Shown piece after piece: positions 3,165 to 20,661 of a stretch of 51,662 bases of DNA. The notes beneath the pieces were generated by a model that saw only the letters and a list, made by a program, of their open reading frames with translations, was not told the DNA's origin and ran no database searches. Position 1 is the stretch's first letter, and each line of letters starts with the position of its first letter. The DNA comes from Escherichia phage aaroes: sequence record NC_049826.1; one strand, written 5' to 3'. The position numbers and the translations under genes were made by a program.

Positions 3165-3247
3165 GATGTTTTCCTTCTGGTCGTTTCGTCTCGATGAAAC
3201 AAATATACCCGATACGAGATCGGGTGTTTTAACAAAAAGTGCTATTC
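3165..3247 (-). promoter_or_regulatory. early promoter-leader cassette copy
   Basis: Read on minus strand: GAATAGCACTTTTTGTTAAAAC, hairpin CCCGAT-loop-ATCGGG, TATATT, leader CATCGAGACGAAACGA; TAG of the upstream ORF lies in the core. Confidence 0.55.
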
Positions 3248-3436
3248 AATACGCTTTACAGTAACCAACAAAACTCCGTCCTCATCACACAAATTATGCT
3301 CTGATATATCAAACGCTCGCATGTCAGAATGAATGAGCGTTAACATTGCGTGCATGAAGTCGTCATGTGAGATTGAACTTACGGCGCAGAACTTCAATAT
3401 TTTGTCTATTAGCATTTGACGTAAACAATTCTTCAT
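3242..3436 (-). CDS. hypothetical protein (64 aa)
   Basis: GGAGA RBS before ATG at 3436; overlaps the 3' end of the upstream ORF by 74 nt in another frame; stop TAG is inside the repeat core. Confidence 0.4.
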   Translation of the reverse strand: MKNCLRQMLIDKILKFCAVSSISHDDFMHAMLTLIHSDMRAFDISEHNLCDEDGVLLVTVKRIE

Positions 3437-3755
3437 CGCTCATTTCTCCGATCCGTAAAACATCCCTTACCCATTCGTTTTGCATACCTTCCAGGCTGTA
3501 AAGTTCAAACGAGAAAGGGCGATTTGCTGATCCTTTCTTACACCAGAACTTTCCACCAACTCCATCAAGATAACCAGCGGTCATCATTCTTGCGCAAAAT
3601 TCTTTTGAAACGGCAGTTGCAAACATCCTCGGCGTAAATCCTGCGGCCCTTGCGAGCCGCTCACATTCTCTGTGCTGAAAGATAAATTTTGCTATATGTT
3701 GACGTGTAAACCATTCGAATGACTCACACCAGCGATACAGATCCAGAAGAAACAT
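3363..3755 (-). CDS. hypothetical protein (130 aa)
   Basis: ATG 2 nt after the stop of the P-loop gene (translational coupling). Confidence 0.5.
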   Translation of the reverse strand: MFLLDLYRWCESFEWFTRQHIAKFIFQHRECERLARAAGFTPRMFATAVSKEFCARMMTAGYLDGVGGKFWCKKGSANRPFSFELYSLEGMQNEWVRDVLRIGEMSDEELFTSNANRQNIEVLRRKFNLT

Positions 3756-3757
3756 AA

Positions 3758-5341
3758 TTACCCTAGCAATGTTGGATTTACGAAAACAACGCCATTAATC
3801 ACACAAATATAATTTCTTTCCTCAAGCATCGGAAGCAGTTGCGTTTCCATGCGCTTCATTACTCCAGCCTGACCAACAAAAGGCTTAACTTTTCGTGCAG
3901 CCTCATATATGGCGCGCACATTCAAGATTCCCTTATTAGCCTTTCCGTGTCGAGTGATGATCTCGATTAGTTTACCCATTTCAGCATCATCACCAGCATA
4001 GCCAGAAGCGTTTGCGGCGCTAATGTATGTTTTGCTCAACTCGCTAAACATCAGCAATGCTTCCTGAACGGTTTCAACCTCAATCTCTTTCGACTTCTGA
4101 GGGTATCCACCAGGATTAAACCAATTGCGGATAGTGTGCAAAACCGAAGCAATCCTGATCACCTGCTTATCCATTTTGCCAAGCGCACCTCGCAGCATTG
4201 TATGCGAATACTTTCCGCCATCAGCAAGGTGCGGTTCCATCTCCTGACGAGCCATGTTAAGCACTCGCATTGCGGATTTGCTGATCTTAAGCTGGATGTT
4301 TGATTCGCTCATGATGTTATGGATCAGCTTAAAATATTGGCTTTTCAGTTCTCCATCAACAGGCTCATAAGTCGAATCACCGTTATCATCAACAAATTTT
4401 CGACGACCTAAAAATGATTCTTCACGCACAAGCAAATAACGCTCACTCACACCGATACCGCGCGATCCTGCATCCATGATGGCATTAATTGTTTCATCCT
4501 GGGCAATTACTGCCATGCAGCCAAGAGCTTTAAAACTCATGTTATTGTCTGCGTTTGCGCGAGCTATAGAAACATGACCGTGATCCCATGCTTTTAGCAC
4601 AAGTTCGCTGTTTGTTTTGCGTTCGCTATTGGCATATGTCAGACCTAAAAGGCTGTTAATACTCGTTGCCTCGTCTGAAATTACAGCAAAGTTACCCTGG
4701 CGATTGTTGATTCTTGCAAGTCCTTCCGGCGTGGTATCGGACACAGGGAAAACAATGTCACACATCTTTTCAAGTTTTTCTTCAAGATCTTCTTTCTCTT
4801 GGTATAGCGATTCCATATCAGCGCCAGATCGCTCGCTTTTCATCTCTTTTGCAAGACCTGCCAACTTTGCCTGAATCTTTTTTCGTTCCTTCTTTCGCTG
4901 ATCATTAATTCTTTCTACTTCAGCAACCATAGGAGCAAGTGCCAGGCTGTTAACGGCAGATTTACCAGTTGAAGGAGGCTGGCTTGTGACAACATAAAGA
5001 GCTGTCGGCTGATCCGTTCCGTGATACTCAACCGTGAAGCGTCCAAGCATTGCAGCAGACACGCATCCGATAAAATGCATATAGGCCGATGATTCAGGGA
5101 ATTGAACAGAGCGAGCAATGTTGCGCGCCAACTTACCAACAACATCAACATCATTGCCAAGAGAAATTACAGGGTAGCGATCGTTTCCGTTATTAACATC
5201 ATTAACCTCACCCCAAAAGCTGGACGATTGACGGTATCCGTTAGCCTGAATGGATACGCGCACCGGAGACAATCCTTGCGCATCAGCTAATTCGATAATT
5301 TGTTTTGGTGTTAGTTTATTGGTTTCAAACGAAAAATTCAT
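3758..5341 (-). CDS. P-loop NTPase of unknown function (527 aa)
   Basis: AAGGAG RBS before ATG 5341; Walker A-like QPPSTGKS and Walker B-like AVISDEAT; charged coiled-coil segment after the P-loop. Confidence 0.55.
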   Translation of the reverse strand: MNFSFETNKLTPKQIIELADAQGLSPVRVSIQANGYRQSSSFWGEVNDVNNGNDRYPVISLGNDVDVVGKLARNIARSVQFPESSAYMHFIGCVSAAMLGRFTVEYHGTDQPTALYVVTSQPPSTGKSAVNSLALAPMVAEVERINDQRKKERKKIQAKLAGLAKEMKSERSGADMESLYQEKEDLEEKLEKMCDIVFPVSDTTPEGLARINNRQGNFAVISDEATSINSLLGLTYANSERKTNSELVLKAWDHGHVSIARANADNNMSFKALGCMAVIAQDETINAIMDAGSRGIGVSERYLLVREESFLGRRKFVDDNGDSTYEPVDGELKSQYFKLIHNIMSESNIQLKISKSAMRVLNMARQEMEPHLADGGKYSHTMLRGALGKMDKQVIRIASVLHTIRNWFNPGGYPQKSKEIEVETVQEALLMFSELSKTYISAANASGYAGDDAEMGKLIEIITRHGKANKGILNVRAIYEAARKVKPFVGQAGVMKRMETQLLPMLEERNYICVINGVVFVNPTLLG

Positions 5342-5414
5342 TGGTGATAACTCCTTTTTGATGCGGCAATAATACCGCACCAATGCTACCCGCATTTAAC
5401 AAAAAATACTATTT
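5342..5414 (-). promoter_or_regulatory. early promoter-leader cassette copy (variant core AATAGTATTTTTTGTTAA)
   Basis: Core followed by inverted repeat ATGCGG...CCGCAT containing TATTAT, then AAGGAG RBS. Confidence 0.5.
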
Positions 5415-5630
5415 GATCCGCTCTATGCTAACTAAGATTTTTTCTGGTTCCTTTTCGCTATGGCAATGCGCGGTTACGGAATCAGCAAAATCAAAATAAA
5501 GTGATTTGTGGTAAGAAAGACCAATCAGCCATCCAACCATCGTTTTCTTTATTGGCCTGACTATATCGCCAGGCTTGAAGGTTTTTGTTGCTGAATAAGT
5601 CACCTTATAGCGATATTCAGTCTTGATCAC
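5409..5630 (-). CDS. hypothetical protein (73 aa, GTG start)
   Basis: Open frame with GTG start and GAGG RBS; stop TAG inside the repeat core; start uncertain. Confidence 0.35.
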   Translation of the reverse strand: MIKTEYRYKVTYSATKTFKPGDIVRPIKKTMVGWLIGLSYHKSLYFDFADSVTAHCHSEKEPEKILVSIERIK

Positions 5631-6013
5631 TTATACATAGCCTCAAACAAATGACAGCCACCAGCGGAAAATCCTACTTCTTCGCGGTATAGCGTCCAGC
5701 GGTCGCCAGCTTCATCAAAAACATAACCAGCAACAGCACCAAGCGCTCGCCCTTGCTCAATCTGGTAACGCTTTCCTTCTTTGAAATGTTTTTTGCACGG
5801 TATCTTGTGATCTACAAAGGTGCATTTAATTGTTTTTGTCTTGATATGACGATAGTCAGACTCAACAGCGTTTTGCCATTTGCTACCCTTTGTAATGCTC
5901 TTTACCTGGAATTGCTCCAACTCGATCACATCATCGCTACCAGAAATTTTTTCGTATACGGTTTTATAACGACCGTTCATCAAAACGTTGGTTTTATTGC
6001 AGATAACTTTCAT
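5627..6013 (-). CDS. hypothetical protein (128 aa)
   Basis: AAAGGAG RBS before ATG 6013; follows a cassette copy. Confidence 0.5.
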   Translation of the reverse strand: MKVICNKTNVLMNGRYKTVYEKISGSDDVIELEQFQVKSITKGSKWQNAVESDYRHIKTKTIKCTFVDHKIPCKKHFKEGKRYQIEQGRALGAVAGYVFDEAGDRWTLYREEVGFSAGGCHLFEAMYK

Positions 6014-6091
6014 CGTTTATTTCTCCTTTCGTTTCGGTGAGGTGATTATGCCAGGCTTTTACACCTGGCTTTTAACAAAAAGTGCTATTTT
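6014..6091 (-). promoter_or_regulatory. early promoter-leader cassette copy
   Basis: Minus strand: AAAATAGCACTTTTTGTTAAAAG, hairpin GCCAGG...CCTGGC, CATAAT, leader CACCGAAACGAAAGGAG. Confidence 0.55.
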
Positions 6092-6795
6092 GCGTTAGCT
6101 TCAAAGACTGCGCGGGCAAAACCGCGCGGGGTGAGGGAGCGGATCATCTTTGTGCGCGATGACTTGCCGCCAGTTTTGGCCCAGCCTGGATTATCTTTGT
6201 CGTTCTCTTTCGGCAGGATTAAAGCGCGTGGAGGAATAACAAAGCCGTTGCCAGTCCAGAGGCATGTTTTCTTAAAATAGCGATCCCGCGCCGGAATAAT
6301 ATCAGGGAAGTCGGGATGTTTATCATCTTCCGGCAGATAGCCAGCGTAATCGCACGGATGGAACGTATAATCAGGCTTACGCCATAACGTTGACAGCTTG
6401 CCTACAGGATTCTCTATCATGTAAGGAACACCGAAATAATCAGCGATATGCGCCGCTATTTTGCAAGTGTCGGCGGCCTCACCCTGGAACGATGGATTCT
6501 CAAGGCGCTTTTTGGACCAATGGCGAGATCCGCTATTCGCAAGGTCAGTGCAAGGTGGGAAGGCCATAATGAAATCAGGCTTACCCCAATTTTCAAGTTT
6601 TGCGGTATATTTGAATAGCTCATCAATCCACACATTAACGTAAAAAATATTGTCGTGGATTATGCGTACTGAGTGGTAATCACCGTGATCTGCATCATCG
6701 TAATTAAAGCAAATGCATTTATATCCAGCATCAGCCCAATCTTTAACGGCTTTACCAGATCCATCAAACAAAGAGAAAATTAAACCCTTATACAT
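6085..6795 (-). CDS. compact DNA cytosine-C5 methyltransferase-like protein (236 aa)
   Basis: C5-MTase motif order: I LFDGSG, IV FPPC, VI ENPVG, C-terminal LTPRGFARA (resembles the TPRE-ARLQGFP block); no room for a large target-recognition domain. Confidence 0.6.
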   Translation of the reverse strand: MYKGLIFSLFDGSGKAVKDWADAGYKCICFNYDDADHGDYHSVRIIHDNIFYVNVWIDELFKYTAKLENWGKPDFIMAFPPCTDLANSGSRHWSKKRLENPSFQGEAADTCKIAAHIADYFGVPYMIENPVGKLSTLWRKPDYTFHPCDYAGYLPEDDKHPDFPDIIPARDRYFKKTCLWTGNGFVIPPRALILPKENDKDNPGWAKTGGKSSRTKMIRSLTPRGFARAVFEANAK

Positions 6796-6804
6796 TTCAT
6801 CACC

Positions 6805-7029
6805 TCAAAACGGAAAGCATCGCTGGCAGTTAGGATCGAAGTTGCAGCCGCAATCATTGACAATCATTGTTGGATCTGCAAATGCAGCGCCGCATTCATG
6901 GTCCATATCCATTTCACCCAACGCATCATCAAGCGTCCTGATTTTATATGCGACTTCAAGCGCGGCCTCTTTATTCAGTCCGGCATCTTCTGCTTTTTGC
7001 AGTCGCTCAAAAAATCCGTCCTGACTCAT
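6805..7029 (-). CDS. hypothetical Cys-rich small protein (74 aa)
   Basis: Acidic N-terminus and C-terminal cluster of 6 Cys (possible metal-binding knuckle). Confidence 0.45.
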   Translation of the reverse strand: MSQDGFFERLQKAEDAGLNKEAALEVAYKIRTLDDALGEMDMDHECGAAFADPTMIVNDCGCNFDPNCQRCFPF

Positions 7030-7127
7030 TTAATAAACTCCTTAATAACAGTAAGAAGAATTGCAAGCCAAAGCAAACCAACAAGGCCAATCATCACGAC
7101 AAATAAAATATCAAGAAATTTCATCAT
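7026..7127 (-). CDS. hypothetical 33-aa hydrophobic peptide
   Basis: AAAGGTG RBS, tandem ATG, single TM-like helix; stop TGA overlaps the ATG of 6805-7029 (ATGA); below the ORF-track cutoff. Confidence 0.3.
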   Translation of the reverse strand: MMKFLDILFVVMIGLVGLLWLAILLTVIKEFIK

Positions 7128-7174
7128 TATTATCACCTTTATTTAAAGGGAGGAGGAAACCTCCCATTGATTAA

Positions 7175-7402
7175 TCATACAGCCTTCCAGCTTTCAATAA
7201 ACATGCTGTTTTCTTCCAGCAGTTTAATCAATTCTTCGCGCGTGTATTTGCGGATTTTACTACCTGGATGTGAGCCAACAACAAACACACCTTTGCCACT
7301 CGTGATTGTTAACTGGTTGATTCCGCAAGATTTATCCATCTTAATGGCGACGCGGTGATGCGCATCAACAGTGTGCATGATGTTAGTGACTTTAGCTTTC
7401 AT
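7175..7402 (-). CDS. hypothetical protein (75 aa)
   Basis: GAGGA RBS before internal ATG (MKAKVTN...); the track ORF extends into the promoter. Confidence 0.45.
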   Translation of the reverse strand: MKAKVTNIMHTVDAHHRVAIKMDKSCGINQLTITSGKGVFVVGSHPGSKIRKYTREELIKLLEENSMFIESWKAV

Positions 7403-7477
7403 TATGCAATCCTCATTATATTTGGTGTGGTAACTATACCAGGTTTGAGAAATATTGTTTAGCAATTAGTGCTATCA
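7403..7477 (-). promoter_or_regulatory. early promoter cassette, variant core (TAGCACTAATTGCTAAAC)
   Basis: Variant core followed about 21 nt later by TATAGT and then TATAAT just before the RBS. Confidence 0.45.
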
Positions 7478-7576
7478 GTTGAAATAGCCATGGCGCTTTG
7501 CTCGCTTTCCGTCTCCGCCATAATGATCATTAGAAACGGCAATCATCCAGGCATTATGGAATATTATTATCTTCAT

Positions 7577-7858
7577 CTAATTAATGCCAACAACGTTAAA
7601 ACTTACAACTTTTGTTCCGCTAAACACATACGCTTCAACAGATCCACCAAATAAACGAATTTTTCCCTGGCCATACTGCGCATTCATATTGCGCCAAACC
7701 GTCATGTTAGAACAGGACGCGTTACCATTCTTGATAAGATTATCCATCTTTTTCATTAGATTATGATAATCAAGCCAGAATCTATAAGCGCGTTGTTTAG
7801 TTCGCGCCGCCTTGATTGTTTCGGCTGAGTTTTTAAAATCGCTGTTTTTGTAGGCCAT
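7577..7858 (-). CDS. hypothetical protein (93 aa)
   Basis: ORF; stop overlaps start of the downstream gene by 1 nt. Confidence 0.45.
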   Translation of the reverse strand: MAYKNSDFKNSAETIKAARTKQRAYRFWLDYHNLMKKMDNLIKNGNASCSNMTVWRNMNAQYGQGKIRLFGGSVEAYVFSGTKVVSFNVVGIN

Positions 7859-8052
7859 TACACAACCTCCATAAAAGTATTGAATCCACGCAGTTTGAAA
7901 GCATTGCCATGTTTAACAACGTTCCATGTCAGGCCGGAGTGATACGCAACCATATCCTCAAGATCAATGGTGATGATAGCGCCTTTCTTAAAGATTCCTT
8001 TCTCGTGAGTGGTGTCGCGCTGCACAACTTTAACATCAACCTGTGTTTCCAT
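7858..8052 (-). CDS. hypothetical protein (64 aa)
   Basis: ORF directly behind a cassette copy. Confidence 0.45.
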   Translation of the reverse strand: METQVDVKVVQRDTTHEKGIFKKGAIITIDLEDMVAYHSGLTWNVVKHGNAFKLRGFNTFMEVV

Positions 8053-8129
8053 TTTTAAATACTCGCTCGTTGTCGATGCGCTTAATATACCAATCAGAGG
8101 CGCATCGTTTTTAACAAAAAGTGCTATTC
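8053..8129 (-). promoter_or_regulatory. early promoter-leader cassette copy
   Basis: Minus strand: GAATAGCACTTTTTGTTAAAAA, hairpin GATGCGC...GCGCATC with TATATT in the loop, leader CATCGACAACGAG. Confidence 0.55.
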
Positions 8130-8556: not shown

Positions 8557-8636
8557 TTTAAAATCCTCGCATTCGTTGTCGATGTGTGTAATATATCGGA
8601 TCGCGAGGATTGAGTTTTAACAAAAAGTGCTATTTA
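8557..8636 (-). promoter_or_regulatory. early promoter-leader cassette copy
   Basis: Minus strand: AAATAGCACTTTTTGTTAAAAC, inverted repeat around ATATATTACACACATCGACAACGA. Confidence 0.55.
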
Positions 8637-8900: not shown

Positions 8901-8919
8901 CTTTATTTCTCCTTTGTTG

Positions 8920-9159: not shown

Positions 9160-9428
9160 TTCTTGATCTCCTCAGCAATGAACTTCAATACCTTGCGCAA
9201 AAACACTTCGTTATTGATGGTGGCTGGCAATTCTTCTTTCACTTCTTGCGGCAGGTAAATATTGCCGTGCCAGGTTAAGCAATCGTAGTTGATGCGGTAA
9301 GAGCAAAGCCACTCGCAATCGTTATCCGCTTCCCAAATGCAAAGCTGCATGACGTCGCCAAAATCTTCAACAGTCAGTTCCAGGCCATGACGCTTAGCGA
9401 AGTTGAAAGTTGTTTTGCTGATGTTCAT
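9156..9428 (-). CDS. hypothetical protein (90 aa)
   Basis: ORF behind a cassette copy, RBS GGAGACGG. Confidence 0.45.
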   Translation of the reverse strand: MNISKTTFNFAKRHGLELTVEDFGDVMQLCIWEADNDCEWLCSYRINYDCLTWHGNIYLPQEVKEELPATINNEVFLRKVLKFIAEEIKK

Positions 9429-9513
9429 CTTACCGTCTCCTGATGGGTGTCTCGTTTCGATGTGTGTAATGTACCCGATCAGGCGGATTCAGTTTTAACA
9501 AAAAGTGCTATTT
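9429..9513 (-). promoter_or_regulatory. early promoter-leader cassette copy
   Basis: Minus strand: AAATAGCACTTTTTGTTAAAAC, TACATT, leader CACACATCGAAACGAGACACC, RBS. Confidence 0.5.
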
Positions 9514-9514
9514 C

Positions 9515-9703
9515 TCAACTGGCGATTATTCCACCTATTCCATTAATCAGGAATAACAGGAATAACTCATTCGAGATCACCTGGATTGTGAGATCTTGAG
9601 TTTGATCAATTTTAATCAGGTGATTAACTTTTTGTGTGGAGGGGATAGAGAAACGCGATCCTCTCGCATCCTTTCCGGCAATCCTGGCGCGCAACATGTT
9701 CAT
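9515..9703 (-). CDS. hypothetical protein (62 aa), possible first gene of the leftward early block
   Basis: ATG after GGATGG; sequence is repeat-rich; stop precedes the cassette core. Confidence 0.3.
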   Translation of the reverse strand: MNMLRARIAGKDARGSRFSIPSTQKVNHLIKIDQTQDLTIQVISNELFLLFLINGIGGIIAS

Positions 9704-9719
9704 TATGTTTCCATCCGTT

Positions 9720-10060
9720 CACGCAAATGAGCCTCCGCAGTTCTTCCACGTTTCATGCTGTCATGCACACAAAAGAAACAATGTAAAATCTATATAAATA
9801 CACATTAAATCAATAAGTTATTTATATATGTATTTATATTTGTTTCTTATTGTTCTTGTTGTGTGATGGTTATTGGTATATGTTGCGATTTTTGTGTTGG
9901 TGGATATTGATTGTTTATTGTTCGATTTGGTTGATGATTATGGTTGCTCATGGTTGCGTATGATTCTTGATGTATTTATGTATATATCCGCGAAAATTCG
10001 TGAACAGCCACACAGCCAAAAAACATGGTGAGGATTCTTTTTAAATCATGCACTTAACTG
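9720..10060. other. AT-rich, GT-iteron-rich non-coding control region at the strand switch
   Basis: About 340 bp without a credible ORF; repeated TGATT/TGGTT/TGTGTG units; shares ATAAATCAATAAGTTA and TGTT(C)TTATTGTT with 39480-39800. Confidence 0.5.
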
Positions 10061-10111
10061 TGAATTTTGTTTCCGCGCAATCTCCACACGTATAGCAAAC
10101 AATTAGAACGC

Positions 10112-10140
10112 TTGACATCGACACGGCGCGGTGGCAACAT
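10112..10140 (+). promoter_or_regulatory. candidate sigma70-type promoter for the rightward early block
   Basis: TTGACA, 17-nt spacer, CAACAT, about 40 nt upstream of the first plus-strand ORF. Confidence 0.35.
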
Positions 10141-10179
10141 TGCAACCACCAACAAACAGAGCAAATAGGAGTTACTCTT

Positions 10180-10641
10180 ATGACTATGACAAGTAAAGAA
10201 TTTTGCGATATGTTGCGAGTTAATGCAGCCTCACTAGCTAACGGTGATGTTAGCGAACTGCAAATCAAGGAGCTTGACTTGCAATGCAATATTGCGCCGG
10301 AAGACTTGAGGAAAATTAACGCCTCATACATCCGAACGATTATGAATCGAACGCCGGAGGTGAAAGCCGTTGGCGTGGTGAAAGTTGAACGCGTTCGAGG
10401 TGATGCGGATATTCCTGATTGCTATCGCGTAACCATTAACAAGAATCCAAAGCGCCGATTGCTGACAGATGAAGAATTGCCAAAACTTGAAAGTAAGTGG
10501 CGAGCAAAGTTTATTGCTCAACTGCTTAAAACACAGCCGCGAATCAGCGATCTGGAAGGTGAGCGCCTGGAAGGTGCAGCAATCGCACTTGAGCGAATGA
10601 ATGAAATGCTTAACGAGATGGTAAAGATGGAGGATGAATAA
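10180..10641 (+). CDS. hypothetical early protein (153 aa)
   Basis: AGGAG RBS then ATG 10180. Confidence 0.5.
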   Translation: MTMTSKEFCDMLRVNAASLANGDVSELQIKELDLQCNIAPEDLRKINASYIRTIMNRTPEVKAVGVVKVERVRGDADIPDCYRVTINKNPKRRLLTDEELPKLESKWRAKFIAQLLKTQPRISDLEGERLEGAAIALERMNEMLNEMVKMEDE

Positions 10642-10904
10642 TGGCTATGATGAAAATTCGCAAAGCAACAGATGATTTCATCCGCAGTAATGCGGAAAGC
10701 GGTCGCCTGTACGTTGCATTCGTGGAGCGCAAGAGAAAGCGCGGAAAGATTGTTGCGACTGAGCGGTTATTCAAGATGAAGCCGAGAACTGAATGCGAAT
10801 GCAAAAAGGATTGCGGTTTTTACTTCGGATGCCGTTGCAGCACGATAGAAAACGCGCGAACGCTCATAGATGAAGGAAAAGTATACTTCAATCCGGCAGA
10901 ATAG
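10641..10904 (+). CDS. hypothetical protein with C-terminal Cys cluster (87 aa)
   Basis: GGAGGA RBS; ECECKKDCGFYFGCRCS zinc-ribbon-like end; stop TAG inside the repeat core. Confidence 0.5.
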   Translation: MAMMKIRKATDDFIRSNAESGRLYVAFVERKRKRGKIVATERLFKMKPRTECECKKDCGFYFGCRCSTIENARTLIDEGKVYFNPAE

Positions 10905-10976
10905 CACTTTTTGTTAAAACGCCAGGTGCGAATCCTGGCATAATAGCCTCATCGAAACGAGATTGAGGAAAACAAA
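10901..10976 (+). promoter_or_regulatory. early promoter-leader cassette copy (canonical)
   Basis: ATAGCACTTTTTGTTAAAAC, hairpin GCCAGG-tgcgaat-CCTGGC, CATAAT, leader ATCGAAACGAG, GAGGAAAACAAA, ATG. Confidence 0.6.
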
Positions 10977-11162
10977 ATGGCACGTCGCATCACCAAAGAC
11001 CTTAAAGTCCTGAACAAAGAAAACGTAGTTAAAATCCTGGTTATCTGGGGATACAACGAAGAAGCAGCAAAGCAGAAGGTAGAGGCAGGTTATGACCTGG
11101 CTGTAAAAGCAATGCCAAACGACGACGCCAAAGGCATTGCAAACTATGTAGCGTTCTTTTAA
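10977..11162 (+). CDS. hypothetical protein (61 aa)
   Basis: ORF directly behind the cassette. Confidence 0.5.
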   Translation: MARRITKDLKVLNKENVVKILVIWGYNEEAAKQKVEAGYDLAVKAMPNDDAKGIANYVAFF

Positions 11163-11177
11163 TTAGCAGGTGAATAA

Positions 11178-11363: not shown

Positions 11364-11462
11364 ATAGCACTTTTTGTTAAAACTCAAAAACGATAACCAG
11401 GCATAATAAATCACATAGGGCGGCACGGCGTCGCCCAGTAAAACCAATCAGGAGAAAGCACC
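11363..11462 (+). promoter_or_regulatory. early promoter-leader cassette copy
   Basis: AATAGCACTTTTTGTTAAAAC, CATAAT at 11402-11407, GC hairpin GGGCGgcacggcgtCGCCC in the leader, RBS GGAGAAAG. Confidence 0.55.
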
Positions 11463-12365: not shown

Positions 12366-12438
12366 ATAGCACGAATTGTTAAAACTCAAATGTGGGGCCA
12401 AGTATAATGGCCTCACTTTCAACGAAGGAGATAAAACG
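12365..12438 (+). promoter_or_regulatory. early promoter cassette copy (core variant ...CACGAATTGTTAAAAC)
   Basis: Core then inverted repeat GGGGCC...GGCC enclosing TATAAT, then AAGGAG RBS. Confidence 0.55.
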
Positions 12439-12669
12439 ATGTACATTAACAAGAAGATGAAATGCATTTCCGTTAACTATGGTTGCTCTGGCATGTTCAA
12501 GCCTGGCGAAATCTATATGGCGCAAAAACTGAAATCATCAACTGGATCTTTTTACGTGAGCAATAGTAAGGGGCATCGCATGTTCCTGAACGGCGGCGAA
12601 GGCACTAAGGTTATGGCACACGCTATGGTAATTGCTGAATTTGAGGAGGTGAAAGATGAAAGCAAATAA
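12439..12669 (+). CDS. hypothetical protein (76 aa)
   Basis: AAGGAG RBS before ATG 12439; the track ORF starts at a TTG inside the promoter. Confidence 0.45.
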   Translation: MYINKKMKCISVNYGCSGMFKPGEIYMAQKLKSSTGSFYVSNSKGHRMFLNGGEGTKVMAHAMVIAEFEEVKDESK

Positions 12670-12877
12670 GCGCGTCAAGCACAGGTTTATTGATAACCAC
12701 GGAGACGCGATCGATGTATACAAGTTCGGCGATCGCGTGTTTATTGACGGCACGTTTGAAGGTGGGCGCAGGCCGGATTTTAGGTCGATACTTACCGCTG
12801 ACCAGGTGCGCAAGCTGGCGGATAAGTTAAATGATCTGGCAGATGAAATCGAATACAAGCAAATCCATTTTAATTGA
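12656..12877 (+). CDS. hypothetical protein (73 aa)
   Basis: GAGGAGG RBS; overlaps the upstream gene. Confidence 0.5.
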   Translation: MKANKRVKHRFIDNHGDAIDVYKFGDRVFIDGTFEGGRRPDFRSILTADQVRKLADKLNDLADEIEYKQIHFN

Positions 12878-12888
12878 TAGGTTTGATA

Positions 12889-13509
12889 ATGAAAAAATAC
12901 GAATTTGAACTTTGGGGAAGCAAATACAATTTTTCCACGAGCAAGCCGATTGTTATCGTTGATCTGGACGGCACTTTATCCGATGGAACGCATCGCTTGC
13001 ACCTGCTGCCGACAGAAGATTTGCACCTTACAGAAAGCTGGTCTGAGTTCAATAAGGCGGCTGTTGGAGATTCGCCGATTAAGAGCACGGTTGCAGTGGT
13101 TAACGGATTGTGGATGTCAGGATTTGCCATCGTTATCCTGACAGGACGCAGCGATGAGGTCATGGCTGACACCTGCGACTGGTTAAATTATAACGGCATC
13201 AAGTACGACGCGTTAATCATGCGCCGCAAGGAAGATAACCGAAAAGACACGATCATCAAAGAGGAAGTCTTACGAGCTATCGGACTGGAAAACATTGTGT
13301 GCGCTTTTGATGATTCGCATAACGTGGTTAAGCACTTCCGCAGCCTGGGAATCACAACCTATCAGGTTACGGAATACGACAAGCCACATAATCACATCCA
13401 ATCGCACGGCGTGGATGAATTGAAGCCAAAAATCGAATGCGAAGGCGAGCACTGTTTTAGTGTGGTTGATGGTAAATGTTTGCGTTGCGGCGTGGAGGGT
13501 TTGAAATGA
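12889..13509 (+). CDS. HAD-family phosphatase resembling the T4 Pnkp 3'-phosphatase domain, with C-terminal Zn-ribbon
   Basis: HAD motif I VIVDLDGTLSDG, then VILTGR, RKDTIIKEEV and FDDSHNVV blocks in the order I recall for T4 Pnkp phosphatase; C-terminal CEGEHC...CLRCG. Confidence 0.65.
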   Translation: MKKYEFELWGSKYNFSTSKPIVIVDLDGTLSDGTHRLHLLPTEDLHLTESWSEFNKAAVGDSPIKSTVAVVNGLWMSGFAIVILTGRSDEVMADTCDWLNYNGIKYDALIMRRKEDNRKDTIIKEEVLRAIGLENIVCAFDDSHNVVKHFRSLGITTYQVTEYDKPHNHIQSHGVDELKPKIECEGEHCFSVVDGKCLRCGVEGLK

Positions 13510-13667
13510 CCTGGTTACTTTTAATCTTTGTCACAAGTTACAACTCCGCCGCTATTGAATCGCATGAGTTCCACAGCGAATCAAGATGTCAGGAAGCACG
13601 AAAGCAAGTTGTTCTCCACATGTCAGATAGTGGAAAAGATGTAACGGCGTTATGTGTCCGTAAATAG
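13506..13667 (+). CDS. hypothetical small protein with N-terminal hydrophobic segment (53 aa)
   Basis: GGAGGG RBS before ATG 13506, overlapping the upstream stop; stop adjoins the repeat core. Confidence 0.35.
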   Translation: MTWLLLIFVTSYNSAAIESHEFHSESRCQEARKQVVLHMSDSGKDVTALCVRK

Positions 13668-13738
13668 CACTTTTTGCAAAAACAGATTGTTGGGCTTGCG
13701 GTATAGTAAGCCCATCGACAACGAAAAAGGAAAACATC
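13663..13738 (+). promoter_or_regulatory. early promoter-leader cassette copy
   Basis: AATAGCACTTTTTGCAAAAAC, inverted repeat GGGCTT...AAGCCC enclosing TATAGT, leader CCCATCGACAACGAAAAAGGAAAACATC. Confidence 0.55.
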
Positions 13739-14038
13739 ATGTTAGTTCGTAATGCGATTTATAAATTCACCAACGAGATGGGAGTTCAACTTTACCACGT
13801 AAACCATCAAGGCCACACATCAATTGCGATGTATCGCGACGCTCGCGGGAAGTGCAAACCTTCTCTGTGTGGCAGAATTTCTCCTGCGTTCTTCATGTTC
13901 AAATGGTATGCAACAGAACAAAGCAACCATAACCATTGGAATAAAGTATTGGTTGCAGGAGGCCGAATTGTTGCCAGCCACGTAGTCGATCCGCGCAAAC
14001 TAACAAGTCGCCAGCTTCGCAAAATGGCGCGCAAGTGA
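13739..14038 (+). CDS. hypothetical protein (99 aa)
   Basis: ORF behind the cassette. Confidence 0.5.
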   Translation: MLVRNAIYKFTNEMGVQLYHVNHQGHTSIAMYRDARGKCKPSLCGRISPAFFMFKWYATEQSNHNHWNKVLVAGGRIVASHVVDPRKLTSRQLRKMARK

Positions 14039-14054
14039 TAGAGGAGAAGAACAA

Positions 14055-14240
14055 ATGATATATGCACTTGTATTTTTGGTGATTTTCTTTTATATTTCAG
14101 GACTATTCATCTTCCGCGCATTGGTTAAAGAGTGTGATTGCACGGATAAAGATCATCCTCTTGTTCTGATGTTCTGGTTTGTGTGGTTTTGGGTTGCGCT
14201 TTACCAGATTGTACGGGATGAAAGCGGCTTTAAGTGGTGA
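14055..14240 (+). CDS. hypothetical small membrane protein (61 aa)
   Basis: Two hydrophobic helices; RBS AGAGGAGAAG. Confidence 0.5.
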   Translation: MIYALVFLVIFFYISGLFIFRALVKECDCTDKDHPLVLMFWFVWFWVALYQIVRDESGFKW

Positions 14241-14295
14241 TTCTTGCTATAGCGCATTCATACAGTGCGCTATGTTGAGATAACAACATGAGATC

Positions 14296-14433
14296 ATGAA
14301 GATGCGAAACTTCGAAAAAATCGTATCCAAAAAGAAGCGATACAGCTACCACGAGCACCAAGAGATGAATCAACGCTGTCGCAATAAGCGCAAGCGCCCA
14401 GGTAAACATTCAAGCAGATATGGAGACAACTAA
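14296..14433 (+). CDS. hypothetical highly basic peptide (45 aa)
   Basis: K/R-rich ORF whose stop TAA sits just before the kinase ATG; weak RBS; below the track cutoff. Confidence 0.3.
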   Translation: MKMRNFEKIVSKKKRYSYHEHQEMNQRCRNKRKRPGKHSSRYGDN

Positions 14434-14434
14434 T

Positions 14435-15025
14435 ATGAAACGAGACATTATCATCCTTAACGGACCGCCTGGAGTTGGCAAGGATACGCTTGCGGCATAC
14501 TTAACGGGCCATCGTTACGCAGCGGTTAAAGCGTCGTTTAAACAGCCTATGTTTGATATTGCGTTTTCCATGCTTGGCGTTTACCGATATGACGAGTTCA
14601 TTGATCTGTATAACGACCGCGAGCAGAAAGAAAAGCCTCAAGCAATCTTGCAAGGCAAGTCGCCTCGCCAGTTCATGATCTGGATTAGCGAAGAAGTTAT
14701 GAAGTCAGCTTTTGGCGAGCAATATTTCGGAAATCGCATGGTTGAGCAAGTACACGAGATGTACAGAGATTTAGCTGTTGTAATTAGTGACGGCGGATTC
14801 CCTGAAGAAATCAAGCCGCTAGTTAAGGCAGGCCATGAAGTTCACATTTGCCGACTGCATCGCGAAGGCTTCACGTTTGATGGCGATTCACGAAACTATA
14901 TTGACCTGAACGGATACCATCACCGCGTAAAACATTACGACTTCACAATGATTGATGGCGATCCAGAAAAGACTGTTGACGAGATCATCAAAACGGTCCA
15001 GTGGAAACACATTAAGATCAAATAG
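14435..15025 (+). CDS. P-loop nucleotide kinase, T4 gp1 (dNMP kinase)-like
   Basis: P-loop ILNGPPGVGKDT then AVKASFKQP block, similar in order to T4 gp1 as I recall it; stop TAG in the repeat core. Confidence 0.6.
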   Translation: MKRDIIILNGPPGVGKDTLAAYLTGHRYAAVKASFKQPMFDIAFSMLGVYRYDEFIDLYNDREQKEKPQAILQGKSPRQFMIWISEEVMKSAFGEQYFGNRMVEQVHEMYRDLAVVISDGGFPEEIKPLVKAGHEVHICRLHREGFTFDGDSRNYIDLNGYHHRVKHYDFTMIDGDPEKTVDEIIKTVQWKHIKIK

Positions 15026-15095
15026 CACGAATTGCTAAAAGCGGGGCGCAATGCCTCGCTATAATGCAAACACCAATCAACGAGAGGACTTGAAC
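15021..15095 (+). promoter_or_regulatory. early promoter cassette copy (core AATAGCACGAATTGCTAAAA)
   Basis: Core, GC-rich imperfect repeat, TATAAT 15060-15065, leader AATCAACGAGAGGA. Confidence 0.55.
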
Positions 15096-15500
15096 ATGTT
15101 AGAGCTTAACTACATTCGCGTAGGCACAAAATTTCGCGTAACCTGGGTATATGATGAGCGATGCGGCATTCGCAAAGGTGAGATTGTAACGGCTTCCGAT
15201 CGTTATATCGGATCGTTAAAAGAGTTTAACCGACCACGCATCAAGAATGGCTATATCATTACTCGACGACTTGGCTTTGATCATTATTGCGTAGTGGCAA
15301 CTCAAGGCGTTTTGATTGAGCTTAAGCGAATCAGCGATCATCGCGGCTGCCATGTTAAGACAATGAAAATGCCATTTCAGCGAGCGCGATACGATGCGCG
15401 ACGTATGCGCCGACTTGCGCGAAATGCGATCAAGTTCAAAAAGCCTGGTAATGATTTTTACGTCATGTACAAGGGGATTGCGCGAAATGCTGGGAAATAA
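15096..15500 (+). CDS. hypothetical protein (134 aa)
   Basis: GAGAGGA RBS before ATG 15096. Confidence 0.5.
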   Translation: MLELNYIRVGTKFRVTWVYDERCGIRKGEIVTASDRYIGSLKEFNRPRIKNGYIITRRLGFDHYCVVATQGVLIELKRISDHRGCHVKTMKMPFQRARYDARRMRRLARNAIKFKKPGNDFYVMYKGIARNAGK

Positions 15501-15599
15501 CAACAACGCAACCAATCCTAAGCCACCGTTTGATTTTCATGAAATCATGATTGTGTTATTCTTGATTCTCTTATTTATTTATTCAGTGAGGGCCGCACT

Positions 15600-15863
15600 A
15601 TGGTTTTTAACGCACTAAAACGAATCTTTAAACCTGAATACAGGATTGTTGCTTGCACAGAATGCAATATTTATTACCTTCAACGCCGCCGCGTTATTGG
15701 TGGGGGTTGGGAATACCTGACGGATGATGCTTTCGGCTTTTGGGCTATGGAGTTCAATAGCTACAGCGAAGCGCGAGAATACGCTAAAAAGTTGCACAAG
15801 TTCAGACCTTACAAACTTCGTTTGCTGGTTGTCAAAAAGTGCGACGTATGGGAGCACGAATGA
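15600..15863 (+). CDS. hypothetical protein (87 aa)
   Basis: ORF; a possible 43-aa membrane peptide (15487-15618) upstream is not called. Confidence 0.45.
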   Translation: MVFNALKRIFKPEYRIVACTECNIYYLQRRRVIGGGWEYLTDDAFGFWAMEFNSYSEAREYAKKLHKFRPYKLRLLVVKKCDVWEHE

Positions 15864-16039
15864 AAAAGTACGCAATAATCACATTAGCACTAATTATCGG
15901 ATGCGCACTTGCTTATAGTTGCGATGGCATTCTTGAGTCAATAGGCGGAATGATCATCTTTGCGGCTGGTTGTTATGCTGGGTATCACGACGGGTTTACA
16001 GCAGGCAAGCGCCACATCCTGACCGGAAAAACAAAATAA
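15860..16039 (+). CDS. hypothetical small membrane protein (59 aa)
   Basis: GGAG RBS, hydrophobic N-terminus (AIITLALIIGCALAY). Confidence 0.45.
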   Translation: MKKYAIITLALIIGCALAYSCDGILESIGGMIIFAAGCYAGYHDGFTAGKRHILTGKTK

Positions 16040-16081
16040 TGTTAACCGCGCCGCTTAGGTGGCGCCAAAAGGAGGAAACAA

Positions 16082-16369
16082 ATGGCTAAAAGCTATCATA
16101 AAATGTTGATTAACGCATTCGAAAAGGCAGCGCTTGAGCGTGGTTGGAATGACTCATTTCACACAGCAAACTGCATCAGACGTTACGGATTCAAGAATTG
16201 CCGCTCATGGGCGCGTGAAATGGCTTCATGGTATGATTTCGATGCGCATTACCTTGATATGGATTGCGCGCTGGTTGAAATGATTGAGCAGGCAGCGCTA
16301 GAGGATCGACCATTGACGCAATCTGATTTTGATGATTTTGTTCGCGATGAAATCTATTACATGAGCTAA
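16082..16369 (+). CDS. hypothetical protein (95 aa)
   Basis: AGGAGGAAACAAATG RBS; stop TAA-TAG runs into the repeat core. Confidence 0.5.
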   Translation: MAKSYHKMLINAFEKAALERGWNDSFHTANCIRRYGFKNCRSWAREMASWYDFDAHYLDMDCALVEMIEQAALEDRPLTQSDFDDFVRDEIYYMS

Positions 16370-16444
16370 TAGCACTTTTTGTTAAAACTTCCGCGAGGGC
16401 ATTTGTTAAAGTGTCCTCATTGAAGCGAAACAGAGGAAAGCACA
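16368..16444 (+). promoter_or_regulatory. early promoter-leader cassette copy
   Basis: AATAGCACTTTTTGTTAAAAC, inverted repeat GAGGGCA...TGTCCTC, leader ATTGAAGCGAAACAGAGGAAAG. Confidence 0.5.
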
Positions 16445-20619: not shown

Positions 20620-20623
20620 CAAA

Positions 20624-20647: not shown

Positions 20648-20661
20648 TTGGAGGAAAGATA

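Follow-up and report, generated by a model that had tools for sequence, protein, structure and literature searches.

The 51,662-nucleotide stretch of phage DNA analysed here (the window) carries repeated cassettes that are probably sigma70 promoters of the class II marbox type, read by the host activators Rob, MarA, SoxS or RamA; we infer binding, activation and the exact start sites from the sequence. If this is true, the phage drives its early genes with borrowed host proteins, the regulators MarA, SoxS and Rob of stress response and antibiotic resistance. The repeat itself is already known from phage TLS: a 2024 publication describes a 21-nt direct repeat there and leaves its function as a question (PMC11447400). 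What is new here is the marbox match of its core, and the marbox reading is a possible answer to that published question.

Manual curation identified 22 cassette copies and one truncated copy at window position 1-12. The pattern AATAGCAC-N5-G-NN-AAAAC, with at most two mismatches, has 16 matches compared with 0.62 expected, and none of 100 shuffles reached 16. A preliminary description had reported about 20 copies. The repeated cassette is real and every coordinate listed there is a genuine copy (those on the minus strand are left-hand ends), but the copy at 28605-28624 (minus strand) was overlooked, and the copy at 40935, called degenerate, is a marbox with zero mismatches. The cassettes were also described as always co-oriented with the downstream gene. 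This holds for all 18 standard cassettes (18 of the 22 copies), for a variant at 20590 that is without a properly spaced hexamer, and for a degenerate copy at 34521 that adjoins a start codon; it does not hold for 24845-24864 and 28605-28624, which are antisense to the late genes around them. The cassettes and two canonical promoters without a marbox are:

1..68, plus strand: truncated cassette at the window edge; marbox positions 9-20 (TTTTGTTAAAAC) at 1-12, 18-nt spacer, hexamer CATAAT 31-36, predicted TSS near 43, ATG 69
3165..3245, minus strand: cassette; marbox 3226-3245, TATATT 3202-3207, predicted TSS 3195, start codon 3164; spacer hairpin
5342..5412, minus strand: cassette; marbox 5393-5412 (2 mismatches), TATTAT 5369-5374, predicted TSS 5362, start codon 5341; -10 enclosed by a hairpin
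6014..6088, minus strand: cassette; marbox 6069-6088, CATAAT 6045-6050 (TGG upstream), predicted TSS 6038, start codon 6013
7403..7475, minus strand: cassette; marbox 7456-7475 (0 mismatches), 17-nt spacer, TATAGT 7433-7438, predicted TSS 7426, start codon 7402
8053..8127, minus strand: cassette; marbox 8108-8127, TATATT 8084-8089, predicted TSS 8077, start codon 8052; -10 enclosed by an 8-bp stem
8557..8633, minus strand: cassette; marbox 8614-8633, TATATT 8590-8595, predicted TSS 8583, start codon 8556
9429..9511, minus strand: most upstream cassette of the leftward arm; marbox 9492-9511, TACATT 9468-9473, predicted TSS 9461, start codon 9428
10112..10140, plus strand: canonical promoter without marbox, TTGACA-17-CAACAT, counterpart of TLS P01; precedes the first rightward gene (DUF7174, 10180-10641)
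10901..10976, plus strand: cassette; marbox 10901-10920, CATAAT 10939-10944, predicted TSS 10951, ATG 10977; spacer hairpin GCCAGG/CCTGGC
11364..11462, plus strand: cassette; marbox 11364-11383, CATAAT 11402-11407, predicted TSS 11414, ATG 11463; 49-nt leader with its own hairpin
12366..12438, plus strand: cassette; marbox 12366-12385 (GAATT variant), 17-nt spacer, TATAAT 12403-12408, predicted TSS 12415, ATG 12439
13664..13738, plus strand: cassette; marbox 13664-13683, TATAGT 13702-13707, predicted TSS 13714, ATG 13739
15022..15095, plus strand: cassette; marbox 15022-15041, TATAAT 15060-15065, predicted TSS 15072, ATG 15096
16369..16444, plus strand: cassette; marbox 16369-16388, TAAAGT 16407-16412, predicted TSS 16419, ATG 16445
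20590..20661, plus strand: variant copy; marbox 20590-20609, 4 nt, TATAAT, then an intrinsic-terminator hairpin; no hexamer at 17-19 nt; next gene from 20662
39372..39445, minus strand: cassette; marbox 39426-39445 (0 mismatches), 17-nt spacer, TATAGT 39403-39408, predicted TSS 39396, start codon 39371
40935..41015, plus strand: cassette after the exonuclease gene; marbox 40935-40954 (0 mismatches), 17-nt spacer, TATAAT 40972-40977 in the 8-nt loop of a covarying hairpin, predicted TSS 40984, ATG 41016
47581..47652, minus strand: cassette before the primase gene; marbox 47633-47652, overlapping the 3' end of the regulator gene, TATCAT 47609-47614 in the loop of a terminator-like hairpin, predicted TSS 47602, start codon 47580
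48123..48198, plus strand: cassette before the helicase gene; marbox 48123-48142, 17-nt spacer, TATTAT 48160-48165, overlapping the opposite-strand -10 of the regulator's promoter, predicted TSS 48172, ATG 48199
48161..48188, minus strand: canonical promoter without marbox, TTGAGT-16-TATAAT, counterpart of TLS P57; Cro-like regulator gene (47636-48109, minus strand)
50647..50724, plus strand: cassette; marbox 50647-50666, spacer hairpin, CATAAT 50685-50690, predicted TSS 50697, ATG 50725

The order of parts is a 20-bp core (ATAGCAC-N5-GYTAAAAC), a spacer of 17-18 nt, a TATAAT-like hexamer, a C-A start site, a leader and an RBS. The leader is short (~26 nt; median 26 nt), A/C-rich and begins AUCGAAACGA. 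The hexamer logo (n=19) is T15 A19 T17 A15 A11 T19, with G at -14 in 15 of 19 copies and C-A at -1/+1. The fixed distances between the hexamer, the G at -14, the C-A start and the RBS show that the unit is indeed a promoter-leader cassette. From TTGTTA to the hexamer, previously given as 21-22 nt, we measured 22 nt, and 21 in five copies; from the end of the core the distance is 18 nt, or 17. No -35 element was found at 16-18 bp in the cassettes, in agreement with the earlier view that they are not canonical -35/-10 promoters, and a full TG upstream of the -10 is present only in a minority of copies.

The core agrees with the MarA/SoxS/Rob marbox consensus AYNGCACNNWNNRYYAAAYN, which is confirmed in print, at 13 of 14 specified positions; core position 19 is A where the consensus has Y, which counts against the marbox reading. 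Positions that vary among the phage copies (8-10 and 14) are degenerate positions in the consensus. The window contains 19 sites within one mismatch of the consensus (1.4 expected). Scored with a PWM made from 87 ChIP-seq sites for MarA/SoxS/Rob/RamA, the phage cores have a median of 16.3 bits, compared with 11.5 for the ChIP sites; the core ranks within the top ~15% of in vivo bound sites. Eighteen of the 22 cores reach at least the 78th percentile of ChIP sites, and that of cassette 13664..13738 (GCACTTTTTGCAAAA) is identical to a ChIP-seq-bound Salmonella site. The conserved core, formerly taken for a DNA or RNA structural element, is best regarded as a site for a protein; the hairpin downstream is a distinct part, which varies between copies.

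The preliminary description found no described promoter class for this architecture. Its sequence, orientation and spacing all agree with those of class II MarA/SoxS/Rob (marbox) promoters; that the phage sites lie in class II position rests on start sites predicted from the -10. The phage core lies forward and exactly 18 bp from the -10, like the class II promoters micF, nfo and sodA. In the fetched E. coli sequences, micF has a marbox at -51 to -32, 18 bp and TAGAAT; nfo and sodA have 18 bp between marbox and -10, and fumC 17-18 bp. Published class II rules specify a forward site centred near -41, no recognisable -35, and a canonical -10 and TSS, and in structures of Rob/SoxS-micF complexes sigma70 is displaced from the -35. 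In class II promoters the site of the activator overlaps the -35 and stands in for it, which accounts for the apparently "too long" 22-nt spacing.

The window belongs to a T1-like phage of the Drexlerviridae. A motif search in other phages found 9-16 modules per genome in six other Drexlerviridae, whose hosts are Escherichia, Klebsiella, Cronobacter and Pantoea, and no module in lambda or in one Vibrio phage. There are 16 modules in the window, 16 in T1, 13 in Rtp, 9 in Cronobacter ESP2949-1, 16 in Klebsiella Skenny, 13 in AKS96 and ~14 in Pantoea AAS23, compared with a simulated expectation of ~0.1 (window, T1, Rtp, ESP2949-1 and Skenny). When the modules are pooled, 68 of 83 have an 18-nt spacer.

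We propose that a monomeric AraC-family activator of the MarA/SoxS/Rob kind would occupy the 20-bp core, candidates being host Rob (always present), MarA or SoxS when induced, and RamA in Klebsiella and Salmonella. The activator would touch GCAC (~-47 to -44) and YTAAA (~-37 to -33) with its two helix-turn-helix motifs, and its site would overlap the -35 element and take the place of that element. Once bound, it would touch sigma70 region 4 and the alpha C-terminal domain, recruiting host RNA polymerase to the TATAAT-like -10, usually with G at -14, and transcription would start at the A 7 nt downstream of the hexamer. Six-frame translation revealed no MarA/SoxS/Rob homologue (best E 0.66) and the phage encodes no AraC-family protein; it would therefore rely on the host's activator.

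Counting against the marbox reading, T1-like phages grow fast in unstressed laboratory cells, despite scarce MarA and SoxS and a largely sequestered Rob. When the Keio single-gene collection was screened with LL5, a T1-like phage closely related to TLS, the genes recovered were limited to LPS genes, tolC, secB and ppiB; rob, marA and soxS were not among them, and therefore no single activator is essential. Either the three activators are redundant, or good, often extended, -10 elements provide substantial basal activity. A further reading, which we regard as quite unlikely, is that holoenzyme alone acts on these often TG/G-extended -10 elements, with the A/T-rich core as an UP-like or curved element and the marbox likeness incidental or modulatory. 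Strong hexamers and the frequent G at -14 favour it, as does the normal plating of T1-like phages on hosts lacking rob, marA or soxS singly; the class II MarA targets lpxC, lpxL and rfaY have MarA-independent activity too, and UP elements were proposed by the TLS authors (PMC11447400). However, the UP consensus fits only ~8 bp shifted towards the start site, with 6-11 of 14 mismatches at the canonical -59 to -38 register, and the most conserved bases (G4, C5, A6, C7 and G13) are not A/T-tract features. The lack of a -35 at 16-18 bp and the scarcity of full TG also argue against it, and the twenty-base motif is kept across genera with 50-60% protein identity, far exceeding the need of an UP-like element.

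The core might instead be read by a phage protein. The Cro/YdaS-like HTH regulator (T1 gp23 family) is the only phage HTH protein conserved in all genomes compared; it occurs in five of five other genomes at 60-70% identity and in Pantoea AAS23, and its HTH is below the Pfam threshold. A conserved protein of this kind, expressed from a canonical promoter that lacks a marbox, might itself read the core, and this counts against a host reader. In the manner of T4 MotA or Mu Mor/C, its synthesis from that promoter would come first, and it would then switch on ~20 class II-type cassettes. There are well-established precedents for phage activators taking the place of a -35 (T4 MotA, Mu Mor/C, lambda CII), and copies with C at position 14 contain a partial palindrome, TAGCA-N5-TGCTA, centred near -42. 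We nevertheless consider this scheme unlikely. Core conservation is asymmetric, A1, C7 and A16-18 being (near-)invariant without symmetric partners, and the palindrome is broken by T at position 14 in 13 of 19 copies. Every genus has a different predicted recognition helix in the regulator (SQQTVNQW, SNQTVQGW, TPQAVEEW, SMGTVQQW and others), yet the DNA motif is invariant, and the matches to the marbox consensus, the ChIP-derived PWM and the 18-bp spacing would be coincidence. Moreover, the most upstream promoter found on the leftward arm is itself a cassette, with no canonical promoter found upstream of 9511.

Most copies have a hairpin in or around the -10, supported by covariation. Folding of 19 copies gave a mean z of -2.63 (z < -1.64 in 13 of 19); the mean MFE was -10.8 kcal/mol, compared with -5.4 for random 41-nt windows (P < 0.0002). 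In one orthologous cassette from 32 distinct phage sequences, compensatory double changes occur in seven of eight stem pairs; 84% of stem cells are paired (32 phage sequences), compared with 63% in shuffles and 25-54% in slid controls. These folding statistics and compensatory changes bear out the earlier suggestion of a selected structure without a conserved stem sequence. The hairpin is upstream of the predicted start and would therefore act in DNA or in read-through RNA of the upstream gene, most likely as a terminator, insulator or 3'/5'-end stabiliser.

Hairpins also figure in a reading under which the copies are not promoter parts, and act as stoperator-like or insulator elements (a protein roadblock or hairpin against read-through) or as decoys soaking up host MarA/SoxS/Rob. 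The TLS authors raised the stoperator idea by analogy with mycobacteriophage L5 (PMC11447400). Like stoperators, the copies are asymmetric, intergenic and co-oriented with transcription; a hairpin follows most of them, and true terminators follow those at 20590 and 47652. "Terminators" annotated by others, three in T1 and one in G29-2 (ortholog of the 10901..10976 hairpin), are cassette hairpins, and several copies occupy repressive positions of late promoters. All the same, we judge this reading very improbable: it needs no fixed -10 distance, yet the 18-nt spacing predominates, and hexamer, start site, leader and RBS are conserved. In addition, 36 of 66 detectable hairpins enclose the -10 without a T-run after, a terminator scan of 9300-11000, home of two cassettes, found no terminator, and these phages are virulent.

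The copies associated with late promoters are:

24840..24867, plus strand: late (major capsid) promoter TTGCAC-16-TATCAT, ATG 24911; backward marbox 24845-24864 (minus strand) forms the spacer and TG/TAT of its extended -10
28572..28624: plus-strand promoter-like site TGTACA-16-CATAAT (28572-28599), with a backward marbox, 28605-28624 on the minus strand, covering its ~-1 to +19; the marbox adjoins the SD of the gene at 28638 and has its own minus-strand hexamer, TATCAT 28581-28586
34480..34542, plus strand: TTGCGC-17-TATAAT (34480-34508) and a degenerate forward marbox 34521-34540 (~+7 to +26), overlapping the SD of a J-like tail gene (ATG 34543)

A promoter scanner called neither 24840..24867 nor 34480-34508 in the window; it does call the same late-promoter design as that of 24840..24867 in T1, AAS23 and Skenny. 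The backward marboxes within phage late promoters recall the arrangement at the MarA/SoxS/Rob-repressed pbpG promoter, which speaks for the marbox reading, and their placement suggests that the same factor may also repress late genes.

The genome is that of a T1-like siphophage of 51.7 kb (Drexlerviridae, Tempevirinae, Hanrivervirus type), to which Shigella phage SFP17 and Escherichia phages G29-2, egaa, damhaus and pSf-1 are most closely related. T1 itself counts among the seven classic T phages, and the T1-like phages are virulent. We know of no account of the mode of transcription of T1 and its several hundred sequenced relatives, and a literature search found no transcription start site or transcriptome data on Drexlerviridae. 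Small early genes form two divergent arms, at ~3.1-9.5 kb on the minus strand and 10.2-18 kb on the plus strand. The plus-strand early arm is followed by structural genes on the same strand, and the far end and the window start contain the replication and lysis genes. Between the two early arms, at ~9760-9990, lies an ORF-poor, A/T- and T/G-rich stretch with many short TTGTT, TATGT and GATT repeats, which may be a packaging or terminal-repeat region, or an origin.

The intergenic regions carry a 20-bp repeat (the core). Searching for AATAGCAC-N5-G-NN-AAAAC with at most two mismatches returned 16 matches against 0.62 expected, and none of 100 shuffled sequences reached 16. Weaker copies were curated by hand, giving 22 copies and one truncated at the window start, in agreement with the roughly 20 reported in a preliminary description of this sequence. 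That description held the copies to be always co-oriented with the downstream early gene. This is true of the standard cassettes, all 18 of which read GCAC...TAAA toward the following gene, and does not extend to the two antisense copies in the late region (24845-24864 and 28605-28624).

Each cassette consists of the core, a spacer, a TATAAT-like hexamer, a predicted start, a leader and a ribosome binding site. The distance from the end of the core to the hexamer is 18 nt (17 in five copies), which is the same geometry as the 21-22 nt measured previously from TTGTTA. In the hexamer alignment (n = 19; T15 A19 T17 A15 A11 T19), A2 and T6 are invariant, a G is present at -14 in 15 of 19 copies, and the C-A six and seven bases past the hexamer is the usual start-site context (-1/+1). 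A partly conserved leader, CATCGA(A/C)AACGA, follows the predicted start and precedes the ribosome binding site, for a median predicted 5' UTR of 26 nt. The bases from +1 to +12 (e.g., 10951-10962), A-T-C-G-A-(A/C)-A-A-C-G-A, are moderately conserved across genera in a logo of 83 modules (core plus hexamer, pooled over the window and its relatives), and the leaders are A/C-rich and G-poor as far as the Shine-Dalgarno sequence. These first dozen bases could have a role in promoter escape, translation or RNA stability. The cassettes are also fused to the preceding genes, so that coding sequence and regulatory site are joined: the upstream stop codon is the TAG within the core (A-TAG-CAC) in 9 of 22 copies (e.g., 10901-10904, 13664-13667 and 50647-50650), and in five further copies the stop of the preceding gene ends within 1 nt of the first base of the core.

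The cassettes are not textbook promoters, as first noted in the preliminary description. A canonical sigma70 promoter was rejected because no -35 hexamer lies 16-18 bp upstream of the -10; the -35-like TTGTTA or TTGCTA is 21-22 nt upstream, and the bases from -35 to -30 are AAAACn. A sigma70 consensus scan called neither of the two cassettes scanned, those at 9511 (minus strand) and 10901. Other host elements fit poorly. An UP element (NNAAAWWTWTTTTNNNAAANNN at -59 to -38) has mismatches at 6-11 of 14 positions, with the best fit shifted ~8 bp toward the start. A sigma54 promoter (TGGCAC-N5-TTGC; GG at -24, GC at -12) would have to accommodate AG for GG in the core (TAGCAC-N5-GTTA/GCTA) and a right half 2 bp out of register, and it leaves the fixed TATAAT unexplained. 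Sites for IHF, Fis and CRP-like proteins do not fit when compared by eye with their consensus sequences.

In contrast to these candidates, the marbox, the site type of the E. coli activators MarA, SoxS and Rob, matches the core closely. The marbox/soxbox consensus, AYNGCACNNWNNRYYAAAYN, is 20 bp long and asymmetric. Read as ATAGCACTTTTTGTTAAAAC, the core agrees with it at 13 of 14 specified positions, and where the phage copies differ from one another, at positions 8-10 and at 14 (T or C), the marbox consensus is itself degenerate. The window contains 19 sites within one mismatch of this consensus against 1.4 expected, three of them perfect. [quoted passage not shown] Eighteen of 22 cores lie at or above the 78th percentile of the ChIP-seq sites, and cassette 13664 has a core with exactly the sequence of a ChIP-bound site.

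The preliminary description could place this architecture in no described promoter class. That view has to be abandoned, as class II marbox promoters, in which the marbox replaces the -35, match in sequence, orientation and 18-bp spacing. Such promoters have a forward site, no recognisable -35, and a canonical -10 and start, and structures of RNA polymerase bound to micF together with Rob or SoxS show sigma70 moved off the -35. In E. coli K-12, micF (RNA 5' end annotated) carries ACAGCACTGAATGTCAAAAC from -51 to -32, followed by 18 bp and TAGAAT; nfo has a marbox, 18 bp and TATCAT; sodA a marbox, 18 bp and TATAAT; and in fumC the marbox is 17-18 bp from the -10. Of 83 phage modules, 68 have an 18-nt spacing, 11 have 17 nt and four have 19 nt; with starts predicted from the hexamer, the marbox is centred at -40.5, overlapping the -35 region. 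The spacing that had seemed too long for a promoter follows from the orientation and the 18 bp that the cassettes share with class II promoters. The same geometry accounts for the "TTGACA(N23)TATAAT" promoters that annotators entered in the record of phage AKS96.

The likeness to micF, nfo, sodA, fumC and lpxC P2 thus covers the asymmetric 20-bp marbox, its forward orientation and centre at ~-41, the 18 bp to a canonical -10 and the lack of a recognisable -35; the host promoters are sigma70-dependent, as the cassettes would be, and the scores of the phage cores resemble those of the best in vivo binding sites. There are also differences. The host promoters are chromosomal and their marboxes scattered and degenerate, whereas a virulent phage genome here carries ~20 near-consensus copies and adds a selected hairpin in or around the -10, a conserved leader and the fusion of marbox and stop codon.

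A search of other phage genomes, proposed in the preliminary description as a check on the motif, recovered modules in six more Drexlerviridae and in neither outgroup. Protein identity between these genera is just 50-60%, yet the motif is all but unchanged from one to the next.

Modules per genome (marbox with at most one mismatch and a hexamer at 17-19 nt; AAS23 counted at up to two mismatches)
Window: 16
T1: 16
Rtp: 13
Cronobacter phage ESP2949-1: 9
Klebsiella phage Skenny: 16
AKS96: 13
Pantoea phage AAS23: about 14 (at most two mismatches)
Lambda: 0
Vibrio phage 1.029.O: 0
Simulated sequences for the first five genomes: about 0.1

This element has been seen before. In phage TLS, a 21-nt direct repeat, aaATAGCACnnnTTGnTAAAA, occurs in 18 intergenic copies along the direction of transcription, ~76 nt before start codons, and its discoverers also saw it in T1, Rtp and Rogue1 (DeGiulio, Ramsey, Kropinski, Misra 2024, PMC11447400). 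The phage core and the TLS repeat are the same element, and, since the repeat is in print for TLS, the preliminary observation is a rediscovery of a known, unexplained element. In silico analysis of TLS found three sigma70-like promoters only and no RNA polymerase or sigma gene; the authors suggested stoperators, enhancer sites or UP elements and named the function an open question (PMC11447400). The fixed hexamer, the conservation of start site and leader, the hairpin covariation and the marbox identity are not in that paper (PMC11447400) and are new here. The class II marbox reading offers a concrete and testable answer to the question it posed (PMC11447400). The stoperators of mycobacteriophage L5 resemble the repeat in being many asymmetric sites in short intergenic regions, aligned with transcription (PMC11447400), and the orientation rule does hold here. 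However, L5 stoperators bind the prophage repressor, block elongation and have no fixed relation to a -10, whereas the phage marboxes are locked 17-19 nt (mostly 18) from a -10 in virulent phages, and we rejected this reading.

We then considered which protein might read the core. A six-frame search of the window (phmmer and a small HMM, --max) identified no MarA/SoxS/Rob homologue, only noise (best E 0.66), so a reader of this type would need to be a host protein. Two phage genes have canonical promoters without a marbox: the DUF7174 gene (TTGACA-17-CAACAT) and the gene for a Cro/YdaS-like HTH regulator of the T1 gp23 family (TTGAGT-16-TATAAT). The first of these is located as follows.

10180-10641, plus strand: DUF7174 gene, the first rightward gene, behind a consensus -35 promoter

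Could DUF7174 be a hidden universal activator? Its AlphaFold model (pLDDT 80) is weakly winged-helix-like with long C-terminal helices; Foldseek against the PDB returned winged-helix-like matches, none of them significant (best E 0.035), and a PDB sequence search returned none. The family is restricted to part of the Drexlerviridae, and its absence from T1, ESP2949-1 and Skenny excludes it as the universal reader. The HTH regulator occurs in all of the compared genomes, but each genus has its own version of the predicted recognition helix, against a constant DNA motif. A symmetric-dimer operator, TAGCA-N5-TGCTA, was also rejected because conservation of the core is asymmetric.

Among phages, the T4 middle promoters offer a precedent for the arrangement: a MotA box replaces the -35, and the activator re-targets sigma70 polymerase to a normal -10 (sigma appropriation). 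Both systems thus have a conserved box in place of the -35 and a normal -10. Unlike the cassettes, T4 uses another sequence, centred at ~-30 and 11-13 bp from the -10, which is read by the phage proteins MotA and AsiA; the box described here is a marbox centred at ~-41, and our searches turned up no reader encoded by the phage.

The simplest reading is that the site would be read by a conserved host protein: Rob, MarA/SoxS, or RamA in Klebsiella and Salmonella. Rob is made constitutively, and MarA or SoxS would act when induced. An activator of this type would raise transcription by contacting sigma70 region 4 and the alpha-CTD. On balance, sequence and geometry make it probable that these phages have a phage-wide set of class II marbox promoters driven by host activators of the MarA/SoxS/Rob type, although our literature search found no link between marboxes and phages. 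If another protein reads the site, its exact mimicry of a marbox promoter would need its own explanation. A Keio screen with the T1-like phage LL5 recovered LPS genes, tolC, secB and ppiB, and did not recover rob, marA or soxS. LL5 therefore grows on the single deletions and no single activator is essential, so that the predicted dependence on host factors may be quantitative and not all-or-none. This result is compatible with redundancy at the marbox, or with substantial basal activity from good -10 hexamers; MarA-independent activity has likewise been published for class II MarA targets.

The inverted repeat noted in the preliminary description proved to be a hairpin that is real and under selection. 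When a 41-nt segment, starting at the core end and running 16 nt beyond the hexamer, was folded in 19 copies and compared with shuffles, the mean z was -2.63 (z < -1.64 in 13 of 19), and the mean MFE was -10.8 kcal/mol compared with -5.4 in random genome windows. Covariation was assessed for the cassette after the exonuclease gene, using 45 IMG/VR loci (32 distinct sequences including Skenny and ESP2949-1). This cassette has an 8-bp stem with the hexamer inside an 8-nt loop. Across the 32 sequences, 84% of stem cells are paired, compared with 63% in shuffles and 25-54% with a slid partner; both sides have changed in seven of eight stem pairs, and none of 500 shuffles matched the observed covariation score. 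In 82 modules from six genomes, the hairpin places the hexamer in its loop in 36, lies within the spacer in 28, is otherwise arranged in two and is absent in 16.

The 3' arm of the exonuclease-gene hairpin spans ~-5 to +3. The hairpin is thus absent from the RNA of its own promoter and can act only in DNA or in read-through RNA from upstream. An inverted repeat near the -10 is also conserved in the early promoters of coliphage N4, where structure and not sequence counts. However, it is a virion RNA polymerase, aided by host SSB, that recognises the N4 hairpins, and T1-like phages lack an RNA polymerase gene (PMC11447400); unlike those of N4, the cassette hairpins may act in read-through RNA. 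The spacer hairpins (28 of 82) precede the T/A-rich hexamer and look like weak terminators, whereas those enclosing the -10 (36 of 82) have no T-run. A terminator scan of 9300-11000 found none. Several "rho-independent terminators" in public annotations are cassette spacer hairpins in which the -10 hexamer was taken as the T-tract:

T1, 38973-39001: annotated terminator
T1, 39998-40024: annotated terminator
T1, 41980-42007: annotated terminator
G29-2, 1221-1241: annotated terminator

The hairpin might insulate neighbouring transcription units, shield the ends of processed RNA, or assist promoter melting when the DNA is supercoiled.

The antisense copies in the late region are not misplaced cassettes. 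They and a degenerate forward copy coincide with promoter-like sequences of late genes, and relatives have versions of the capsid promoter:

24840-24867, plus strand: major capsid gene promoter, TTGCAC-16-TATCAT, with a backward marbox at 24845-24864 (minus strand)
28572-28624: promoter-like TGTACA-16-CATAAT with a backward marbox at ~-1 to +19, touching the Shine-Dalgarno sequence of the tape-measure chaperone gene
34480-34542: TTGCGC-17-TATAAT with a degenerate forward marbox at ~+7 to +26, overlapping the Shine-Dalgarno sequence of the J-like tail gene
T1, 15062-15089: capsid promoter TTGACG-16-TATTAT (10/12), called by the scanner
AAS23, 5945-5972: capsid promoter TTGCCT-16-TATTAT, called by the scanner
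Skenny, 14171-14198: capsid promoter TTGACG-16-TATTCT, called by the scanner

In the window capsid promoter, the backward marbox fills the 16-bp spacer, and its GTGCTAT provides the TG and the TAT of an extended -10. The capsid promoters of Rtp and AKS96 are canonical and lack the marbox. On the minus strand, the marbox in 28572-28624 has its own TATCAT at 18 nt, a candidate promoter that would send a short antisense RNA into the terminator of the major tail gene. A marbox-like sequence is found at the same J-like gene start in T1, Rtp and AKS96.

A host precedent for repression is pbpG, where a marbox overlaps the promoter spacer and MarA, SoxS and Rob repress directly. As in pbpG, the marbox of the major capsid promoter lies in the spacer and forms part of the extended -10, in the window and in relatives; the window capsid promoter has a weak -35, and repression there is proposed by analogy. 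Neither the capsid nor the tail-gene promoters of the window were called by the consensus scanner, in the capsid case because of this weak -35, and the idea of repression thus draws on the relatives and on manual reading. That one reader might activate early genes and restrain late ones is suggestive only.

A more far-reaching proposal is that the whole T1-like developmental programme is wired to host MarA/SoxS/Rob (or RamA), with activation, late repression, a switch timed by titration and dependence on the stress regulon; we regard this as rather unlikely. Under such a scheme, forward marboxes at -41 would let the host protein activate ~20 promoters of early and middle genes, and from marboxes inside late promoters it would repress these, in the spacer and extended -10 of the capsid promoter and at ~+1 to +26 of the two tail-gene promoters. 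As the phage DNA replicates, hundreds of genomes, each with ~20 high-affinity sites, would then titrate the regulator and set early-to-late timing. Phage growth would thereby be tied to the activity of the host antibiotic-resistance and stress regulon (bile, salicylate, oxidants, mar/ramA mutations), which would affect therapy with a very large group of Klebsiella and E. coli Drexlerviridae.

The narrower reading, class II marbox promoters on the early genes, would itself have consequences. If it is correct, a virulent phage drives its early genes by a host stress and antibiotic-resistance activator and not by a factor of its own, which would link phage development to the host antibiotic-resistance regulon in a classic phage family. 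Bile, salicylate, oxidants and mar/ramA resistance mutations are then predicted to alter susceptibility to a family that is widely used against E. coli and Klebsiella. The cassettes would also be a source of compact, strong and inducible promoter-terminator modules.

Two further sites in the window are of note. One is a variant copy, and Rtp has a standard cassette at the equivalent place:

20590-20661, plus strand: variant copy, with TATAAT only 4 nt after the marbox, then a strong terminator hairpin, then the portal gene

At the other, 48160-48166, the -10 hexamer of the helicase cassette (48123, plus strand) faces and overlaps that of the canonical promoter from which the Cro-like regulator is transcribed on the minus strand. 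The two hexamers, TATTAT (plus) and TATAAT (minus), are offset by one base, and because they overlap, the two promoters should compete for polymerase.

The genome of Pantoea phage AAS23 as a whole contains 4-5 copies of a second repeat, TATTATTTTTGCGGTAGAT, unrelated to the marbox. About 20 database records named "Campylobacter phage" (host C. jejuni) encode proteins up to 100% identical to those of the window coliphage, and look like mislabelled or contaminating T1-like coliphages.
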